This document shows, piece after piece, positions 31,626 to 61,440 of a stretch of 64,000 bases of DNA; the first letter of the stretch is position 1; the number at the start of each line of letters is the position of its first letter. Source of the stretch: Eledone cirrhosa (Eukaryota); assembly GCA_964016885.1 (NCBI GenBank), contig OZ024742.1, positions 97,092,001 through 97,156,000 of the forward strand, given 5' to 3'. The notes under the pieces are model-generated. The model was not told where the DNA came from, did no database searches, and was given only the letters and a program-made list of their open reading frames with translations. A program made the translations under genes and the position numbers.

Positions 31626-33122
31626 ATGGGATTTAGTGACTCGGCGCAGGTCACTGATTTGGTCGGCCTATACCTTCTCAATGAAATCCATAAGGACCTC
31701 CCTTACCTCAACGGTGGTTTGTACCGCGATGATGCACGTCTACTTATAGAATATAAAAAAATTAATATAGAAAGAACTAGAAAACAATTGCATAAGACAT
31801 TCAAAAACTTTAACCTTAGTATCACCATGGACAAAAACACTAAAAATGTTAACTTCCTAGACGCCACACTATACCTAGACTCAAAAATATATACACCTTT
31901 CCATAAGCCTAACGAAAAACTCATTTACGTAGATACCAAGTCTAATCACTCTAGATCAATATTAAACTCTATCTCTAAGGGGGTGTCCAATAGAATCACT
32001 AGTCTGTCCTATGATGCAAACATATTTAGCAAAAACTCACAATATTACAATCAAGCATTAGCTAGATCCGGCCATAATATAGAAATTGAGTTCCTACCTA
32101 AGAAAACACATAGCTACAACATCATCTCGCACAACATGTCCATGAGGAAACCTAATAATAGGAATAGCAACCACAAGTACACCAAAGCGGAGGGTGCCAC
32201 CGGAAGTAACCATTACCATGGAAACTACTGTGGTGCCTTAGGAAGAAACAACACACCTAACACTAAAAACAAAAATAGAAGAAGAAATAATACATTTTTC
32301 AACCCTCCTTTCAACCTAAATGTCTCCACCAACATACCCAGGGCTTTCTTCTCGCTACTAGATAAAAACTTCCCTCTAGGACACAAGTACCACAACCTTT
32401 TAAACAAAAAAACTATTAAAATCTCATACTCTACGACGCCTAACATAGCATACCACATAGCTAGCAGCAATAAAAGTAAAATTAATTCTTACTTCCAACA
32501 AACAAAATCACAACAGGATGCAAACCTTCTAAATACCTCTGTAGCAAGCAACCATAGTAATGGCAGTAACAATAGAAATAACACTAGTATAAGAAATAAC
32601 ACCGGGGTTGACAACCCGAATGTCCAAAATCCTATAGCTACCACCCAGACTTCTGCACTGCATTATAACCAGCAGACTAACACACAGGATAATTGTAACT
32701 GTAGAGCTAATAGAACCTGCCCTTTAGATAAAAAATGCCTAACCAAGGGTATCATATACTCATGCACCGTCACAACTAGCAACTCTTCAGAAACCTATGT
32801 AGGCTCCACTTCTAACTGCTTCAAAATCAGATATAATTCGCACATCCACTCGTTCAAAAAGCACAGCCTAGCCAACTCCACCTCACTTTCTAGCTACATA
32901 CACTATCTAACAACTAAAAATAAACCATACACACTCAAATGGGAAGTGATAGGCAGCGCGACCTCGTACAAACCACCTAATAAATTTTGTAACCTCTGTA
33001 TACTAGAGACCCACAATATTATCTTCTCCAACCGTAACCTACTTAACAAAAAATCTGAGGTATTTGCAACTTGCCAGCACCGCTTCAGACATTCCTTCCA
33101 AAACTTTAAGCCCAATATATAG
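31626..33122 (+). CDS. PLE polyprotein C-terminal part: RT palm/thumb, Cys linker, GIY-YIG endonuclease (N-terminus lost; the frame begins at ~31575)
   Basis: FDITMG..LVGLYLL..GLYRDD, VNFLD, FNPPF, IKISYS, CNCRANRTCPLDKKC, GIIY..YVGST..FKIRYNSH, CNLC..E..LLNKKSE..CQH; 498 uninterrupted codons. Confidence 0.92.
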   Translation: MGFSDSAQVTDLVGLYLLNEIHKDLPYLNGGLYRDDARLLIEYKKINIERTRKQLHKTFKNFNLSITMDKNTKNVNFLDATLYLDSKIYTPFHKPNEKLIYVDTKSNHSRSILNSISKGVSNRITSLSYDANIFSKNSQYYNQALARSGHNIEIEFLPKKTHSYNIISHNMSMRKPNNRNSNHKYTKAEGATGSNHYHGNYCGALGRNNTPNTKNKNRRRNNTFFNPPFNLNVSTNIPRAFFSLLDKNFPLGHKYHNLLNKKTIKISYSTTPNIAYHIASSNKSKINSYFQQTKSQQDANLLNTSVASNHSNGSNNRNNTSIRNNTGVDNPNVQNPIATTQTSALHYNQQTNTQDNCNCRANRTCPLDKKCLTKGIIYSCTVTTSNSSETYVGSTSNCFKIRYNSHIHSFKKHSLANSTSLSSYIHYLTTKNKPYTLKWEVIGSATSYKPPNKFCNLCILETHNIIFSNRNLLNKKSEVFATCQHRFRHSFQNFKPNI

Positions 33123-42016: not shown

Positions 42017-42070
<54 letters not shown>

Positions 42071-42190
42071 TATAGACATAGAATATTCGAAAATATTCTG
42101 TATGTTTATAATAAACATTTTGAAGACCTAATCGCTATAGAATAGAATACGTCACGTATTACAATTAGATTCTCGATAAAAGCAAGGGAA

Positions 42191-42233
42191 GTAATCTACG
42201 CGTTTCATTCTAGTTAGAAATCATCAGGACTAC
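42191..42233 (-). ncRNA. Type I hammerhead ribozyme, first of 9 minus-strand copies spaced 310 bp
   Basis: Reverse complement of GTAGTC-CTGATGA-TTTCTAACTAGAAT-GAAA-CGCG-TA^GATTAC. Confidence 0.88.
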
Positions 42234-45066
42234 ATATCCAGTGCTTTTATCGAGAATGACACAGCTAGAGACTTATAGAATACTTAGCTGTGTACAGGAA
42301 CTGGTTTGAAAGAGCGGTTGCCGGTCCGGCAGAAATTAGAAATTGGAATAAATGCTCTGAAATAGCGATATATATGTGAATATAGACATAGAATATTCGA
42401 AAATATTCTGTATGTTTATAATAAACATTTTGAAGACCTAATCGCTATAGAATAGAATACGTCACGTATTACAATTAGATTCTCGATAAAAGCAAGGGAA
42501 GTAATCTACGCGTTTCATTCTAGTTAGAAATCATCAGGACTACATATCCAGTGCTTTTATCGAGAATGACACAGCTAGAGACTTATAGAATACTTAGCTG
42601 TGTACAGGAACTGGTTTGAAAGAGCGGTTGCCGGTCCGGCAGAAATTAGAAATTGGAATAAATGCTCTGAAATAGCGATATATATGTGAATATAGACATA
42701 GAATATTCGAAAATATTCTGTATGTTTATAATAAACATTTTGAAGACCTAATCGCTATAGAATAGAATACGTCACGTATTACAATTAGATTCTCGATAAA
42801 AGCAAGGGAAGTAATCTACGCGTTTCATTCTAGTTAGAAATCATCAGGACTACATATCCAGTGCTTTTATCGAGAATGACACAGCTAGAGACTTATAGAA
42901 TACTTAGCTGTGTACAGGAACTGGTTTGAAAGAGCGGTTGCCGGTCCGGCAGAAATTAGAAATTGGAATAAATGCTCTGAAATAGCGATATATATGTGAA
43001 TATAGACATAGAATATTCGAAAATATTCTGTATGTTTATAATAAACATTTTGAAGACCTAATCGCTATAGAATAGAATACGTCACGTATTACAATTAGAT
43101 TCTCGATAAAAGCAAGGGAAGTAATCTACGCGTTTCATTCTAGTTAGAAATCATCAGGACTACATATCCAGTGCTTTTATCGAGAATGACACAGCTAGAG
43201 ACTTATAGAATACTTAGCTGTGTACAGGAACTGGTTTGAAAGAGCGGTTGCCGGTCCGGCAGAAATTAGAAATTGGAATAAATGCTCTGAAATAGCGATA
43301 TATATGTGAATATAGACATAGAATATTCGAAAATATTCTGTATGTTTATAATAAACATTTTGAAGACCTAATCGCTATAGAATAGAATACGTCACGTATT
43401 ACAATTAGATTCTCGATAAAAGCAAGGGAAGTAATCTACGCGTTTCATTCTAGTTAGAAATCATCAGGACTACATATCCAGTGCTTTTATCGAGAATGAC
43501 ACAGCTAGAGACTTATAGAATACTTAGCTGTGTACAGGAACTGGTTTGAAAGAGCGGTTGCCGGTCCGGCAGAAATTAGAAATTGGAATAAATGCTCTGA
43601 AATAGCGATATATATGTGAATATAGACATAGAATATTCGAAAATATTCTGTATGTTTATAATAAACATTTTGAAGACCTAATCGCTATAGAATAGAATAC
43701 GTCACGTATTACAATTAGATTCTCGATAAAAGCAAGGGAAGTAATCTACGCGTTTCATTCTAGTTAGAAATCATCAGGACTACATATCCAGTGCTTTTAT
43801 CGAGAATGACACAGCTAGAGACTTATAGAATACTTAGCTGTGTACAGGAACTGGTTTGAAAGAGCGGTTGCCGGTCCGGCAGAAATTAGAAATTGGAATA
43901 AATGCTCTGAAATAGCGATATATATGTGAATATAGACATAGAATATTCGAAAATATTCTGTATGTTTATAATAAACATTTTGAAGACCTAATCGCTATAG
44001 AATAGAATACGTCACGTATTACAATTAGATTCTCGATAAAAGCAAGGGAAGTAATCTACGCGTTTCATTCTAGTTAGAAATCATCAGGACTACATATCCA
44101 GTGCTTTTATCGAGAATGACACAGCTAGAGACTTATAGAATACTTAGCTGTGTACAGGAACTGGTTTGAAAGAGCGGTTGCCGGTCCGGCAGAAATTAGA
44201 AATTGGAATAAATGCTCTGAAATAGCGATATATATGTGAATATAGACATAGAATATTCGAAAATATTCTGTATGTTTATAATAAACATTTTGAAGACCTA
44301 ATCGCTATAGAATAGAATACGTCACGTATTACAATTAGATTCTCGATAAAAGCAAGGGAAGTAATCTACGCGTTTCATTCTAGTTAGAAATCATCAGGAC
44401 TACATATCCAGTGCTTTTATCGAGAATGACACAGCTAGAGACTTATAGAATACTTAGCTGTGTACAGGAACTGGTTTGAAAGAGCGGTTGCCGGTCCGGC
44501 AGAAATTAGAAATTGGAATAAATGCTCTGAAATAGCGATATATATGTGAATATAGACATAGAATATTCGAAAATATTCTGTATGTTTATAATAAACATTT
44601 TGAAGACCTAATCGCTATAGAATAGAATACGTCACGTATTACAATTAGATTCTCGATAAAAGCAAGGGAAGTAATCTACGCGTTTTATTCTAGTTAGAAA
44701 TCATCAGGACTACATATCCAGTGCTTTTATCGAGAATGACACAGCTAGAGACTTATATAGTCCTGATGATTTCTAACTAGAATGAAACGCGTAGATTACT
44801 TCCCTTGCTTTTATCGAGAATCTAATTGTAATACGTGACGTATTCTATTCTATAGCGATTAGGTCTTCAAAATGTTTATTATAAACATACAGAATATTTT
44901 CGAATATTCTATGTCTATATTCACATATATATCGCTATTTCAGAGCATTTATTCCAATTTCTAATTTCTGCCGGACCGGCAACCGCTCTTTCAAACCAGT
45001 TCCTGTACACAGCTAAGTATTCTATAAGTCTCTAGCTGTGTCATTCTCGATAAAAGCACTGGATAT

Positions 45067-45109
45067 GTAGTCCTGATGATTTCTAACTAGAATGAAACGC
45101 GTAGATTAC
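45067..45109 (+). ncRNA. Type I hammerhead ribozyme, one of 4 plus-strand copies (44758, 45067, 45377, 45687)
   Basis: Helix I GTAGTC/GATTAC, core CTGATGA and GAAA, helix II TTCT-AACT-AGAA, palindromic helix III ACGCGT; predicted cleavage after GUA at 45103. Confidence 0.88.
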
Positions 45110-45882
45110 TTCCCTTGCTTTTATCGAGAATCTAATTGTAATACGTGACGTATTCTATTCTATAGCGATTAGGTCTTCAAAATGTTTATTATAAACATAC
45201 AGAATATTTTCGAATATTCTATGTCTACATTCACATATATATCGCTATTTCAGAGCATTTATTCCAATTTCTAATTTCTGCCGGACCGGCAACCGCTCTT
45301 TCAAACCAGTTCCTGTACACAGCTAAGTATTCTATAAGTCTCTAGCTGTGTCATTCTCGATAAAAGCACTGGATATGTAGTCCTGATGATTTCTAACTAG
45401 AATGAAACGCGTAGATTACTTCCCTTGCTTTTATCGAGAATCTAATTGTAATACGTGACGTATTCTATTCTATAGCGATTAGGTCTTCAAAATGTTTATT
45501 ATAAACATACAGAATATTTTCGAATATTCTATGTCTATATTCACATATATATCGCTATTTCAGAGCATTTATTCCAATTTCTAATTTCTGCCGGACCGGC
45601 AACCGCTCTTTCAAACCAGTTCCTGTACACAGCTAAGTATTCTATAAGTCTCTAGCTGTGTCATTCTCGATAAAAGCACTGGATATGTAGTCCTGATGAT
45701 TTCTAACTAGAATGAAACGCGTAGATTACTTCCCTTGCTTTTATCGAGAATCTAATTGTAATACGTGACGTATTCTATTCTATAGCGATTAGGTCTTCAA
45801 AATGTTTATTATAAACATACAGAATATTTTCGAATATTCTATGTCTATATTCACATATATATCGCTATTTCAGAGCATTTAT

Positions 45883-45956
<74 letters not shown>

Positions 45957-54323: not shown

Positions 54324-54996
54324 ATAATAATAAATGTGAAGACTAAAATCTAAAGAGGGCTCGATAAGGATAAATATATATCAAATATATAAGAACCATA
54401 GAGCAAACATAGAGGTGTGTATGTATATATTTAATCTAAACTATAATAATGAAAGGTCTGCGGGATTGCGTACGGTTTATCTTTTTTTATCCCGTTTGTA
54501 AAATAAGTTGGATTACTTTGAATAAATAATGAATGAATATTGCATAATTTATCTACTCAATTTCGTAAACAAAAATAATTTCGTAAAAATAAATAATTTC
54601 AAATTGACTTCTTTTCAAAGTTGCACTTCCGGAATATAGTCGCCACTACTTCAACTACCAAATATATAGAAAGAGAGAATTTGTGATGAGAGAGATAGAG
54701 AGATTATGATTTTCTACACCTGACGCGTATGATTCTGCACATACATACATCTATATGTATGAGTATATAATTATTATGAGTATATAACTATAATCGCGCA
54801 AACTCAAACTTATAAAAATACACTCTCACGGACATAATTCACACAAATACACATACTTTCACAAAATATACATACATTCATACATACCTTCACAGAAACA
54901 TGCATACATTCACACAAACATACATTCTTTCACACAAATATACATACATTCACACATATACTTTCACTCAAACATACATACATTCACACATATCAT

Positions 54997-55500
54997 ATAT
55001 TGAGTTATAAACTCAAAATAGTCTTTTACAATTAAATAGCTCAAAGAAGGGAATCTTTCCGAGCCGTGTAATAAAGTAATAAATCAATAAAAATAACAAA
55101 CCTATATTGGGCAATCGCCGTTTAATAATTTTTAGCGGCACGAGTATGCGAGGCGTTAGGCGCTGTGACATGTGCGTTCAACAACACATAGTTTTCAGTC
55201 TACTTAAATCTTTTGAAGTGAAAGGTACGAATTTCCTGGATACCCGCAGAAGAGCACAGGGATAGTGACTTTAACTTAATAATTGTTGCGAAACAGATTT
55301 AGATCTGTCCGGGTTTCAAACGGCGATTGCCCAATATAGGTTTGTTATTTTTATTGATTTATTACTTTAAATCGAGACAGGCAAACCATATTATTTTAAA
55401 TTAGTATTTTTCAACCTAGCTAACTTGGTCATTTACAATTCGAACACATGTATACTTGTATTGGTGTTCAACTCTCTCATATATTCAATTGTAGTACATT
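54997..55500. mobile_element. ~505-bp hammerhead family, diverged copy with 5' inversion
   Basis: HHR 55242-55314 (+): ACCCG-CAGAAGA-GC..GC-GAAA-CAGAT-TTAG-ATCTG-TC^CGGGT. 55072-55123 is the reverse complement of 55318-55369. Homologous to 60498-61008. Confidence 0.8.
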
Positions 55501-56234
55501 CACGCATATACATTTACACAAACACACACATGCTAGCGTTCGGTTTAATTGGAGATTGGAGGGTATACTTTCACACAAATATACATACATTCACACAAAT
55601 ATACATACTTTCACACAAACATACATACATTCACAGATACCATCACACAAACATACATACATTCATACATATACATTTACACAAACATACATTTACACAA
55701 ACGCACATATACAGTCATGACAGCGTTCGGTTTAATTGGAAATGGGAGGGTAAACAAGTATAACGTTTTATTTATTTATTAACTCTTTATTTACTTATTA
55801 ACTCTTTTTTTTTTTAAACTCATCTAAACTATAATAAAGTAAGGAGTGCGGGACTGCGTACAGTTTATAATTTTTTATCCCATTAGTAAAATAAGTTGGA
55901 TTACTTTGAATAAATAATGAATGAATATTACATAATTTATCTACTAAATTTCGAGGCTATTGATTAAATATATTTTGTTTATTTAAAGATTCACTTCTTT
56001 AAAATTTCTGAAATGTCAACACTTCCGGTTGGCCATCGCTTAAATAAACATATTAATTTTATGTCACTAATTTTCTCCTAATGTAGTTTAAATATAATAT
56101 CGTCTATTTTAATGTATCATGGATTACGTTACTGATTACATAAGACAGTCTTCGTTCAATTTCTATGTATTATATATTGTCAATTACGATTTTATTTGAT
56201 GTATCATATCTACATGTATATATACCTGCGTATA

Positions 56235-56640
56235 ATATCAATATACACACTACGCATGGTAGCAGAAAACCACCCGAAGGGTGGTTTTTCTGCTAGTTAT
56301 TATAATAACCTCTGTTATTTTCGTTCAACTAATTTATTTACATTATTCTTACTCCGAAACCGAGAATCATTCGGTTTCCTAAATAGAATGACTCCATTTA
56401 TACCATAAACGTGGTTTTGTCTTTGCGTGTAATTGTTCTCTCCACTCCTTATAACGACGTATTATCTTGGCTTTTTTCTGTTTTCACGAACCAAAGTATG
56501 ATCTTCCTGTTTTCCTCCGGTTGCAACGTTTTTCGAAATACTTACTTGTCAGTTCACAGATTGATTTTCTTCATTTCAGAAGATCCCGTTAAGGGTGAAA
56601 GCAGCGATTCTTTGCTAAATTTTAATCTATTATTTTAATA
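56235..56640 (+). mobile_element. CAGAAGA-hammerhead repeat family copy
   Basis: 5' hairpin shared with ~51410-51470; body shared with 37622-37882; HHR motif at ~56574-56620. Confidence 0.7.
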
Positions 56641-57034
56641 TATATACATATATACATATATATATTATATATATATATGTGTGTATGTATTTGCATATGT
56701 ATGATCGGCCTTTGTTGGTTACAATTGTGGGTGTTTCAGTTATTTGATAAACCATACAACAGCATGTTTGTGCAATTACCATGCAAATGGCTGGGTATTT
56801 AACAAACATAAGTATTATTAACATATTCATCAGGAAGATTCAGCAGGTTCATTTTTTTCCCAGATGAATGGACTGGAGCAATGTGAAATACTATGTCTTT
56901 CTCAAAAGCATAACAAGCAGACTGAAAACAAACTCAAGACCTTATAATTGCTAGATAAGCCTTGTGTTTCTAAAAACATAGATACATGCACACAGGCACA
57001 TGTATGTATCAAAATGTATGTTTAATACATGATT

Positions 57035-57830
57035 ATTTGGAACATAACTTACGAGAAATATAAATACTTTAAAAGAACAAATATGTATTATAGAACCAGG
57101 GGCGATTTCAGTCTGGATTTGGAACACAACTTAAAAAAGGTTCTTACATAAAATTATGGCAGCAGATTTTGAGATAAAATATAAACATTTTAAAACAAAC
57201 AATTTTGCATCATAGAACCAGGTGCGATTTCAGGCAGTTTGGTATCAAAAGTTTTAATATTGTGTTTGGCACATAAATTAACAAAGGTTCTTATAATAAA
57301 TGATAATGATAAACACTTTAAATGAAAAGGTTTTGTATTGGAGAACCTGTGTCAGTTTGAGACAGCTAGGTATAAAAAGTATTAAGCTGATGTTTGGAAC
57401 ATAATTTACCAATGGTTCTTACAAAATTATGGTGGACGATTTTTAGATAGATATAAACATTTCAAAACAAAGAGCTTTGTATGATAGAACCACATGCGAT
57501 TTCAGACAGTTTGCTATCAAAATGGTTAAACTGTTCTTTGGAATAGAATTTATTACATAAAATTATAGTGGAAGATTTTTAGATATATATAAATGCTTTA
57601 AAGCAAATAGGTTTTTATCATAGAATCATATGTTGTTTCAGGTGGTTAGTATCAAAAGGGTTAAGCTAATGTTTGGAACAAAATCTAACAAAAGTTCTGG
57701 AAGATTTTTAGATAAAATATGTTCGTTTGGAAACAAACAGTTTTGTATTGTAGTCTCAGGCACAATTTCAAGCAGTTTGTTATCAAAAGAGTTAAGCTGG
57801 TATATGGAGCATGGTAACAAAAGGGTTATC
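57035..57830. repeat. Old tandem repeat, about 6 units of ~120-145 bp
   Basis: TAGAACCA-like anchor near 57091, 57213, 57341, 57485, 57621 and 57751, each followed by TTTCAG..GTATCAAAA..TTTGGAAC. Confidence 0.8.
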
Positions 57831-58114
57831 AGCGCCAATATTGCGTTACACACCACCATCACCAGCACCACGACAAACAATAATGATCTCTTACTATAAT
57901 CTTATGTTCTATCATCTTGCAATAAATATGTCTAACCAATATCCAGTATCCTATATTTTAAACTGAAAATCATTTGTTAGAAAGATTTAATCATGCAACT
58001 TATTGCTTTAAAACACATTAACTCAGACCAGATTTCTAAGTCAACAAATATCATGTCGACAAAGAAATCATTCAAATTCAACTGAATCCTTATTTTGTTT
58101 CTTAACAAAAGTAG

Positions 58115-58390
58115 AAATCACAATAATATACATCATCAACAGAAGAAAGTAGAACCTGTAACAACAGCAATAACAACATTTGGGACAACAACAGCAATAG
58201 CAATAATAATTGGTGCTGCAATAACACCAACCACAACAACAACAACAACAACAGCCACAGTGAGAGTTGATACTGTAACAATAACAACAAAAGCAACAAC
58301 GATAACAAGTGTAATAGTAACAGCAACAAGAACAATGCAAACAATAACGGCAATAAAAACATTAACAATAGCAGCAACCATAACATAGTT
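58115..58390. repeat. (AAC/AAT)-rich low-complexity tract
   Basis: Directly visible. Confidence 0.85.
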
Positions 58391-58872
58391 GCTGTTAGAA
58401 ACAATAGCTAAATTTACCTCAAATCAAACTAAACATTCTTAACATAGGAAGGACACATTAGATAATCCAGTCGTAGGTACATTATGTCTGAATGGGAGAT
58501 GTGATGTTAATAGCTGTAAAACGTTTGATCACAGGTTTGCTGGATCAGGGTTGATTTGGGACTAAGCAACATCAACATTACCTGGCTTTTAGCTTTGAGA
58601 CGAGCTATTTAGTCTGACAATCACTTATGCCCTTCATGACAACAGTCTTTGAGTCTATGATAAAGGGTTGTGTGTGCTTTTATCCAACTTCTGTCTAAGC
58701 AATGAGAAAAAATAGAAAAAATAAAATATAAAACCAAAACAGCAATAATAACAACAAAATGAGCGGTAACAACAAATAAAATTACAACAAAAATTGTAAC
58801 AATAAAATATATACATAGGTGCACATACGAATAGAAACAACAATAGTGGTGGCATCAATTAGCAATAAAAAC

Positions 58873-58907
<35 letters not shown>

Positions 58908-59002
58908 TTTTGAGTATATGTTGGTTGTATACCAACACCTCAGTATGCCGGCTGGAGCACTCGACGAAGTGCGCAGGTTGGTTTGGTTACTCCGGGGTAA
59001 TG

Positions 59003-59440
59003 TAAAATAAAGTAAAATAAATAAGTAAAATGTTTAAAATTTAGCTTCGTTTATTACTGCTATATATATTTCGATGACAGCCATCTTTGGCTGTCACCTC
59101 TTCAGGCAGTCCGAATTAGTGTGGTATAGACAAGTACATATGTTGTTGAGGTGTATAATTTTGTCAATACTCTGATATACCCAGTTCCTGGTTGGATTGT
59201 TATTTCACTGAGGAACTGAAATCATATGATTCCAGTTCCTCAGTGAAATAACAATCCAACCAGGAACTGGGTATATCAGAGTATTGACAAAATTATACAC
59301 CTCAACAACATATGTACTTGTCTATACCACACTAATTCGGACTGCCTGAAGAGGTCACAGCCAAAGATGGCTGTCACCGAAATATATATAGCAGTAATAA
59401 ACGAAGCTAAAGTTTAAACATTTGACTTTTTATTTTACTT

Positions 59441-59447
<7 letters not shown>
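59003..59447. mobile_element. Spacerless palindrome (~222-bp arms) carrying two hammerhead motifs
   Basis: Centre ATCAT|ATGAT (59225/59226). HHR on plus 59341-59395: ACTGC-CTGAAGA-long helix II-GAAA-TATATA-TA^GCAGT. HHR on minus 59056-59110. Confidence 0.9.
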
Positions 59448-59533
<86 letters not shown>

Positions 59534-59537
59534 ATGC

Positions 59538-59940
59538 CATGTGCGCTATTATATATAGCACACTATTCAGTTTCTTAATATACTTAGAAGTGTCTAGGAT
59601 ACTAATTCCTCACCCACTGATGAGCTTGAATTCGTAATTCTATTCACAATTAACATTGCGAAACAACACCAAGTTGTCTGGGTGATTGGTAGTTATCACA
59701 ATTCCGGTTTGTATTTATTTTCTTGATTTTTTCTTAAATTGAGACAAGCAAACCCAATTGTCTCTAGATAGTATTCTTTTCACCTTAGCGAATCTGGTCC
59801 CTTACGATTTGAACACATATATGTATATATCTGTGTTCGTTTTTCTTTTATATTCTTTTATAATATAAGGCTCGGAATTATTTCTTTCTTTGAGCTATTT
59901 TGTTGTAAGAGACTATTTTGAGTTCCTAACTCAATATATA
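59538..59940 (+). mobile_element. ~505-bp hammerhead family, diverged copy
   Basis: HHR 59610-59685: TCACCCA-CTGATGA-GC..GC-GAAA-CAAC-ACCAA-GTTG-TC^TGGGTGA; flanks homologous to 60600-61008. Confidence 0.85.
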
Positions 59941-59961
59941 CCTTTGATATATATATTTATA

Positions 59962-61008
59962 TATATAATTGAATAAACTAAAGAGATGAACACTAATATA
60001 AACATACATGTGTTCGGATCGTAAGGACTAGGTTAGCTAGGGTGAAAAAATACTAACTACAGCAATGTGCTTTTTCAGAGTTAATTTTTAGTAGTAAATT
60101 AAGAAAAATAACAGACCTATATCAGGCAATAGCCTGGTAACAACTGGACAGTTTTGAAAACTGTTTCGCAACATCTTATTAAGTGAAGTCAACACGTTTC
60201 TCTGCTCCTCAGTAGTTGTTGAGAAATTAGCGATCCTTCCACTTCTAAAAATATTAGAAGACTGAATTGTGTGCGATATGAAATAGCGCACGTGTCTCCG
60301 AAACCTAGCATGTCTCGAAATCCCATGCCGCTAGAAATAACAGTCTGGTTAACAAGACATTGAAATTAGCTCTACATGATGGAGCCGACAAATATATAGT
60401 GAGTTAGAAACTCAGAGTAGTCTCTTACAATTAAATAGCTCTAAGAAAAAAGCTTTTCCGAGCCGTGTAATATAATTGAATAAATAAGAGAGATGAACAC
60501 TATATATTTGTCGGCTCCATCATCTAGAGTTAATTTTAATGTCTTGTTAACTGCTATTTTTAGCGGCATGGGATTTCGAGACAAGCCGGGTTCCGGAGAC
60601 ACGTGCGCTATTCCATAGCGCACACAATTCAGTCTGCTAATATTTTTAGAAGTGGAAGGATCACTAATTTCTCAACAACTACTGAGGAGCAGAGAAACGT
60701 GTTGACTTCACTTCATAAGATGTTGCGAAACAGTTTTCAAAACTGTCTAGTTGTTACCAGGCTATCGCCCGATATAGGTCTGTTATTTTTCTTAATTTAC
60801 TACTTAAAATTAAGTCTGACAAACCATATTGCTGTACTTACCATTTTTTCCCCCTAGCTAACCTAGTCCTTACGATCCGAACACATGTCAGTTTATATTA
60901 GTGTTCATCTCTCTTGTTTATTCAATTATATTACACGGCTCGAAAAAGCTTTTTTTCTTAGAGCTATTTAATTGTAAGAGACTACTCTGAGTTTCTATCT
61001 CACTATAT
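59962..61008. mobile_element. ~505-bp hammerhead family, head-to-head pair (minus ~59962-60502, plus ~60498-61008)
   Basis: HHR on plus 60674-60755: AACAACTA-CTGAGGA-GC..GC-GAAA-CAGTTTTCAAAACTG-TC^TAGTTGTT. HHR on minus 60139-60220. Confidence 0.9.
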
Positions 61009-61025
61009 ATATATTTATTTATTCA

Positions 61026-61175
61026 TTTATTTAAGATAACAGATTAAAGTTTAAGCAAAGAATAGCTGCTTTCACCCTTAACGGGATCTTCTGAAACTTC
61101 TGAGTTTCAGAAGATCCTGTTAAGGGTGAAAGCAGCGATTCTTTGCTTAAACTTTAATCTGTTGTTTTAATAAAT
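61026..61175. mobile_element. Foldback (arms ~73 bp, 4-bp spacer) of the CAGAAGA-hammerhead 3' end
   Basis: Plus 61103-61153: AGTTT-CAGAAGA-TCCT-GTTAA-GGGT-GAAA-GCA-GCGATTCTT-TGC-TT^AAACT; minus copy 61048-61098. Confidence 0.8.
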
Positions 61176-61255: not shown

Positions 61256-61440
61256 GGATTGGCATTATCGTTAGAGGGTCGGACGCCATGCTTTCCAGGA
61301 TAGTTACGTCCCTTAACTATCTGAGTTCAAATCCCGCCGAGGTTGACTTTGCCTTTCATCCTTACGGGGTCGATAAAATAAAGTACCAGTAATGCACTTG
61401 GTAATTGTTGGCCTTGTTCCAAAAGTAGAAACAATTATTA
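61256..61440 (+). mobile_element. SINE family 2 copy
   Basis: Co-linear with 52348-52532. Confidence 0.8.

Follow-up and report, generated by a model that had tools for sequence, protein, structure and literature searches.

Animal retrozymes without long terminal repeats (non-LTR retrozymes) are described as non-coding units of a few hundred bases and low GC content, each with one type I hammerhead ribozyme, that occur as tandem copies and many dispersed monomers and are proposed to depend on Penelope elements (Cervera and de la Pena 2020, PMC7229834; Li, Clavereau and Pollet 2026, 10.64898/2026.07.22.740005). How their RNA circles avoid opening themselves is given as an open question in the 2020 paper, according to which the circles are mostly not blocked by self-pairing and another block is probable. 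Base-paired pseudoknots between domains I and II have been described in all three hammerhead types and in about 40% of hammerheads, with a helix II of 1–2 base pairs (bp) tolerated (Perreault et al. 2011, PMC3088659, including human C10). The locus considered here, a 64,000-nucleotide (nt) stretch of the Eledone cirrhosa genome (GCA_964016885.1, contig OZ024742.1, positions 97,092,001 to 97,156,000, forward strand; hereafter 'the window'), contains four copies of a repeat family that shares these retrozyme traits. Its hammerhead differs from those of animal retrozymes in having a helix II of 2 bp and a loop II of 28–36 nt, and loop II is predicted to form a pseudoknot about three times the known length, which would serve the ribozyme as a brace and might in addition turn it off.

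The copies and their parts are listed below by window position; pairings and cut sites are predicted.

54995..55123, minus strand: inverted partial arm of copy 1
55125..55498, plus strand: copy 1 of the unit, from the lineage with A at core position 4 (A4); truncated at the 5' end, stops at about +189 from the cut site
55216..55238, plus strand: upstream strand of copy 1, pairing with loop II at 55257–55277; duplex -15.4 kcal/mol
55239..55317, plus strand: type I hammerhead 1, with helix I, core CAGAAGA at 55247–55253, helix II GC/GC and loop II at 55256–55287; the remainder comprises GAAA, helix III and GUC, with the cut after 55309
59538..59952, plus strand: copy 2 of the unit; truncated at the 5' end, stops at about +274 within (TA)n
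59590..59608, plus strand: upstream strand of copy 2, pairing with loop II at 59628–59647; duplex -12.7 kcal/mol
59610..59685, plus strand: type I hammerhead 2, with core CTGATGA at 59617–59623 and loop II at 59626–59657; cut after 59678
59963..60401, minus strand: copy 4, which forms the inverted arm of copy 3 and bears a hammerhead too (core 60212–60206)
60392..60507, minus strand: short inverted piece of the 3' part of the unit, between both arms
60500..61010, plus strand: copy 3, a complete unit that stops on its outer side at +263 within (TA)n
60639..60673, plus strand: upstream strand of copy 3, pairing with loop II at 60692–60724; duplex -22.8 kcal/mol
60674..60755, plus strand: type I hammerhead 3, with core CTGAGGA at 60682–60688 and loop II at 60691–60724; cut after 60747

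An earlier note, made from the letters of the window, had proposed three diverged hammerheads with co-varying helices and a loop II pseudoknot. The helix I and helix III strings and GUC triplets that it quoted were all present where it placed them (cores start at 55247, 59617 and 60682), as were the three complementary pairs between loop start and upstream segment, and its short GC helix II with an unusual loop was confirmed (GC/GC; loops of 32, 32 and 34 nt). Several particulars required revision. The fourth, minus-strand copy had been overlooked; this is 92% identical to copy 3 and its outer end lies at +184, within (TA)n. The core of copy 1 reads CAGAAGA and not CUGANGA; helix I, although correctly paired, extends to 7–8 bp across the family; and the loop II complementarity, quoted at 5–6 bp, was far too short, since the actual pairing is about 18 bp. 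Copies 2–4 and most of the family show CUGANGA, GAAA and NUH in the order of a type I hammerhead, while the copy 1 lineage departs from CUGANGA at core position 4. Strand order is standard, unlike that of permuted hammerheads (PMC10085705), and self-cleavage after GUC is predicted for these motifs.

The family is invisible to Rfam: its hammerhead models gave no match in the window at gathering or curated score. The best score was a weak 21.2 bits to RAGATH-1 (RF03152), at 59588–59683, and another weak match to this model occurred at locus L131 of the genome sample described below; the cut-off is 56.3 bits. Like the family, RAGATH-1 is of type I, has structure in a 5' extension and has a very short helix II, of one pair; in RAGATH-1, however, a hairpin makes up the 5' part, and loop II is short.

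Exact matches to the core pattern numbered 1,180 in the 3.0-Gb genome of the species, against none for a reversed control pattern, while the CAGAAGA form of the pattern gave 339; both counts contain a few double and unrelated matches. Over both core forms there were more than 1,500 exact motif matches. DNA searches of the genome with three window copies returned 1,016, 2,220 and 2,061 first-look candidates, and fetched loci (numbered with the prefix L) yielded 185 distinct hammerhead-like hits, of which 174 share downstream sequence with the window copies. The 154 of these that retain an intact upstream region form the set for pairing counts. This sample over-represents close relatives of the window copies, as well as the first listed places on two contigs (C1 and C2). 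The unit is dispersed, non-coding and 506–515 bp long, and most copies are truncated monomers. The period of about 505 bp given in the earlier note was borne out by head-to-tail copies elsewhere, spaced at 506, 506, 507, 515 and 534 bp in five distinct loci, the 534-bp spacing including a local duplication. On C1, a pair of identical motifs separated by 10 kb was considered as the ends of a long element and was found to be a local duplication.

A proximal run of at least five contiguous pairs between loop II and the upstream strand, abutting helix I, was found in 130 of the 154 copies, where 18.4 were expected from shuffled loops. The earlier note had named loss of the pairing in further copies as a refutation; this check was made and the proposal withstood it, further copies retaining the pairing, and with covariation. 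The full pairing comprises about 18 bp across 19 alignment columns and uses two thirds of loop II; proximal contiguous runs are of 5–15 pairs. Over the 154 copies the duplex had a median energy of -17.6 kcal/mol, while control segments taken from downstream gave -6.7, with z = -3.5 and p ≤ 0.05 in 133 of 154 copies; the duplex weakened to -11.0 kcal/mol in copies without the upstream motif. Raw counts of duplex pairs were excluded as evidence, unrelated sequences also reaching 8–25. Upstream strands preferred their own loops to those of other subfamilies (-17.1 versus -13.2, permutation p = 5e-5, 41 cluster representatives), and among these representatives the preference was seen when the inner half was taken alone (-7.5 versus -5.5) and likewise with the outer half (-7.3 versus -5.9).

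Covariation was assessed on a sequence-only alignment of 38 rows, being 37 of the 41 representatives plus L171, the 3' end of which is cut off. The 19 columns were 80% paired, with 12 doubly changed pairs, and none of 500 shuffles matched the score; slid registers reached 39–54%, although the register was picked from the same data and is therefore favoured over the slid controls. In the same alignment helix I was 91% paired with covariation in five of seven pairs, helix III was 95% paired with covariation in three of five, and the 2-bp helix II was invariant, being GC/GC in 38 of 38 representatives; GA.GAGC and GCGAAAC were likewise invariant in the core. RNAalifold applied to a MAFFT alignment recovered helix III alone, as expected because of crossing helices and indels. 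On a tree of 37 rows built from downstream sequence, double changes numbered six in the proximal part (0–1 when slid), three in the middle part (0 when slid) and 11 in helix I; slid controls for these three ranged from 0 to 2. The inner 11 columns are accordingly well supported; support for the outer eight, which pass the swap tests but fail the tree count, is moderate.

These patterns bear on the possibility that the complementarity was left behind by an ancient inverted duplication, of a kind frequent in Penelope-type DNA, and has no RNA function. Such elements often make inverted arms, and the outer pairs are without tree-level double changes, as a relic would predict; but the inner columns show compensatory changes, the register is fixed relative to helix I, and one distant subfamily (L169 and L170) has both strands replaced with the duplex retained. 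A relic is therefore very improbable.

Some observations on the same strands stand apart from this comparison. As possible scars of editing, 19 A-to-G changes were counted in loop II against nine T-to-C (p = 0.035, uncorrected), with none such in the upstream strand or elsewhere. For the upstream strand an alternative partner, lying downstream of helix I, was noted by eye and suits a single subfamily. A small hairpin just 3' of helix I (60757–60769 in the window, and equivalents) also appeared by eye to be kept with differing sequences in three lineages.

Other hammerhead families within the same loci mostly lack such pairing. Some of these (at L023, L075, L193, L205 and L201) have an internal hairpin in loop II; short complementarity between loop and upstream strand near helix I was visible by eye, and the duplex test was not significant. 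A further family with a palindromic helix III is represented by a single copy (L021, 2290–2430), in which a loop II of 57 nt pairs with the upstream strand up to helix II (-29 kcal/mol, z = -3.9). A pattern scan of viral sequences in IMG/VR, in which 57 distinct matches were examined from 80 listed of at least 120, produced two with a helix I of 5 bp, neither of which had a long pairing.

The predicted junction would tie the first part of loop II to the end of helix I, which is the site of the usual contact between helices I and II. Hence the earlier proposal that a pseudoknot supplies this contact fits in location, and the membership of the family among pseudoknotted hammerheads agrees with the pairing of loop II to the strand adjoining helix I in 130 of 154 copies. 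Its claim that the short form is a distinctive architecture does not stand, because a base-paired I–II pseudoknot and a 2-bp helix II were both described by Perreault et al. (2011). It is the length of the pairing, which that note overlooked, that by sequence comparison is distinctive: the pseudoknots of the cases described in 2011 are of 4–6 bp, compared with 5–15 contiguous proximal pairs and about 18 overall in this family. Where the known hammerhead pseudoknot takes up half a turn, this one would take up one or two. A literature search, with supplements outside its scope, found no account of a pseudoknot this long, nor of this family. The pseudoknot itself is thus known in principle, and the new parts are the pairing length and a lineage-wide core change considered below.

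With moderate confidence, the best overall explanation is a unit mobilised in trans that carries a long pseudoknot, the inner part being a brace and the outer part a brake. In a transcript the upstream strand comes first, followed by the helix I 5' strand, the core and finally loop II, and the hairpin of upstream strand and loop II can therefore form first; the two would zip during transcription, leaving the helix I 5' strand and CUGANGA-GC in the hairpin loop. Helix I would then cross as a pseudoknot, with the inner 11–14 pairs stacking on helix I and tying helix II alongside, so replacing the usual loop–loop contact and offsetting the 2-bp helix II. The outer pairs would have to open for a linker of 5–13 nt to return the GC-GAAA strand. 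The fully zipped form would be inactive, and the outer helix would thereby let uncut multimers or circles persist and serve as templates for insertion. Judged from the comparison of copies, the inner pseudoknot is likely to act as a brace; that the outer helix is an off-switch is a suggestion from modelling to which we give slightly less than even weight.

Folding and geometry were consistent with such a division. With the transcript stopped at loop II, nested folding gave at least eight pairs between upstream strand and loop in 106 of 154 copies, and this hairpin locally outweighed the plain three-way fold in 27 of 41 representatives. The linker after the outer helix measured 5–16 nt, with a mode of 10, and under a worm-like-chain model the fully zipped duplex, a span of 22 nt, could be bridged in cis in only three of 39 representatives. 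The best closable form in this model retained 11–13 pairs and cost 7.5–10 kcal/mol over the zipped form. The pairs retained by the model are those that covary on the tree, which favours an inner brace about one turn long, with the outer part as a zipper in competition with the 2-bp helix II.

The same linker bears on a simpler view, in which all 18 bp remain paired while the ribozyme is active and do no more than speed cleavage, the duplex being either bent at internal loops or bridged by an A/U-rich linker drawn taut. Internal loops are indeed frequent in the duplex, loop II is kept within a narrow 28–36 nt, and inner and outer halves each prefer their own partner; yet the linker is too short for the straight span in 36 of 39 representatives, and a permanently formed brace seems unlikely. 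The linker problem would be removed if the shut hairpin offered its helix I 5' strand and CUGANGA-GC to a neighbouring unit, to be completed there by the half that runs from GC-GAAA through helix III to GUC, such that tandem transcripts alone would be cut. Tandem units are present, and dimer-only cleavage has been described in Penelope and amphibian hammerheads (PMC4209133, PMC7229834). Helix III is, however, a stable hairpin of 5–7 bp, unlike the palindromic stub of the known dimeric forms, and a register abutting helix I would be expected equally in cis; we regard such a domain-swapped dimer as a poor prospect.

Several observations weigh against the inner-brace and outer-brake explanation. 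The outer eight columns were paired at 72% and had only one double change on the tree, against 1–4 in slid controls, and their pairing may partly reflect conserved sequence; the covariation statistics are all inflated by sequence kinship. The cost of 7.5–10 kcal/mol, from a crude model (worm-like chain, assumed distances), is large for a 2-bp helix II and core, and cis activity could therefore be low. Once the 3' strand of helix I was made, at least eight pairs between upstream strand and loop remained in only 85 of 154 copies, by a nested-folding program that cannot fold pseudoknots, and for three of four circular monomers the minimum-energy fold paired the upstream strand elsewhere. No family copy among the fetched loci was fused to a reverse transcriptase or endonuclease frame. 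Finally, one lineage has spread with A at core position 4.

This last lineage was common: with the loop start of copy 1, the A4 form (CAGAAGA) gave 527 matches and the form with U at this position (U4) gave 12, and A4 was spread over at least five loop variants. These values indicate that a lineage was amplified with A4, the rest of the core being kept. Single changes in the same core turn lowered the activity of another hammerhead (PMC9901934); the text on core variants in Perreault et al. (2011, PMC3088659) makes no mention of the position-4 A change, and our literature search turned up no report on the activity of such a variant. Either the brace rescues cleavage or fast cleavage is unneeded. 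The latter would accord with a role for the long hairpin mainly as a recognition or packaging signal to the Penelope enzyme, the ribozyme being slow or dispensable. Amplification of the changed core into at least five loop variants agrees with this, as do the poor cleavage of Penelope hammerheads in vitro (PMC4209133) and the eight of nine Xenopus retrozyme constructs that remained uncleaved (10.64898/2026.07.22.740005). Nevertheless, the remaining core and GUC are fixed across subfamilies of scored similarity 0.38–0.89, the A4 lineage included, and a hairpin that serves chiefly as a signal is improbable. The fullest form of the brace-and-brake explanation, a zipper switch in which the inner turn braces the active fold, the second turn parts the catalytic halves and the brace keeps the A4 variant working across its lineage, is speculative and is put forward as a possibility of rather low probability.

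The mode of insertion was examined through the ends of 71 copies, being those of 97 hammerheads in 3-kb loci that matched a monomer at 85% or more. The 3' ends fell at +181 to +191 from the cut site in 27 and at +260 to +276 in 24, and 61 of the 71 adjoined (TA)n, while 5' ends were ragged (-80 to -800). Copies on both strands, as inverted arms, occurred in 20 loci; in five (L001, L062, L097, L104 and L088) one arm stopped at +184–189 and the opposite arm at +237–276. The Penelope pattern consists of tandem and inverted arms, a tail at a single end and (TA)n targets (Craig 2021, PMC8557442), and the family displays a fixed 3' end, variable 5' truncation, an inverted partial arm, a (TA)n target and a tail at one end. 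It also has the non-coding unit, single type I hammerhead and head-to-tail repeats of a retrozyme. On these features, the family is very probably an animal non-LTR retrozyme of Penelope type; its unit exceeds the 170–400 nt of the 2020 paper and lies within the 51–972 bp of the 2026 preprint. Family copies span the cut site and occur in tandem, from which a template that is uncut, multimeric or circular is inferred; the unit would be transcribed, would cut itself and would return to (TA)n DNA through a Penelope-type reverse transcriptase acting in trans.

GIY-YIG frames beside some copies were considered as the partner and, among the fetched loci, belonged to separate Penelope elements with 3' ends and (TA)n of their own at the junctions that were read (L037, L083, L026, L101, L022, L072 and L019). 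The window has a Penelope-like GIY-YIG endonuclease frame at about 32370–33120 on the plus strand (profile E-value 7e-19).

Minimal hammerheads of Penelope elements (Cervera and de la Pena 2014, PMC4209133) are similarly of type I, with Penelope-type terminal repeats, tandem or inverted arms and (TA)n (PMC8557442). Their helix II is long and their helix III a stub (PMC4209133; PMC6765202) or a palindrome, and they work as dimers (PMC4209133); the present family is the reverse. A minimal Penelope hammerhead of a separate family, with self-paired helix II and TATATA helix III, is found on each arm of a perfect 211-bp fold-back at 59015–59436.

The conserved self-pairing strand sets the family apart from the retrozyme circles described in 2020 (PMC7229834), and makes it a candidate exception to their want of a self-pairing lock. 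The candidate lock that it offers is one that covaries, and, if the zipper switch is true, an animal retrozyme would have a kind of lock that such circles were reported to lack. For structure–function work, the family supplies dozens of natural variants and a core substitution that is lineage-wide.

Other repeats in the window included two opposed arms of 310-bp arrays, 99% identical (42058–45888), and a diverged tandem repeat of about 130–140 bp in 5–6 copies (57068–57830). A palindromic element with 68-bp arms lies directly 3' of copy 3 (61005–61170), with a related piece at 56574–56665. A tRNA-like short interspersed element at 61270–61440 resembles an octopus family.

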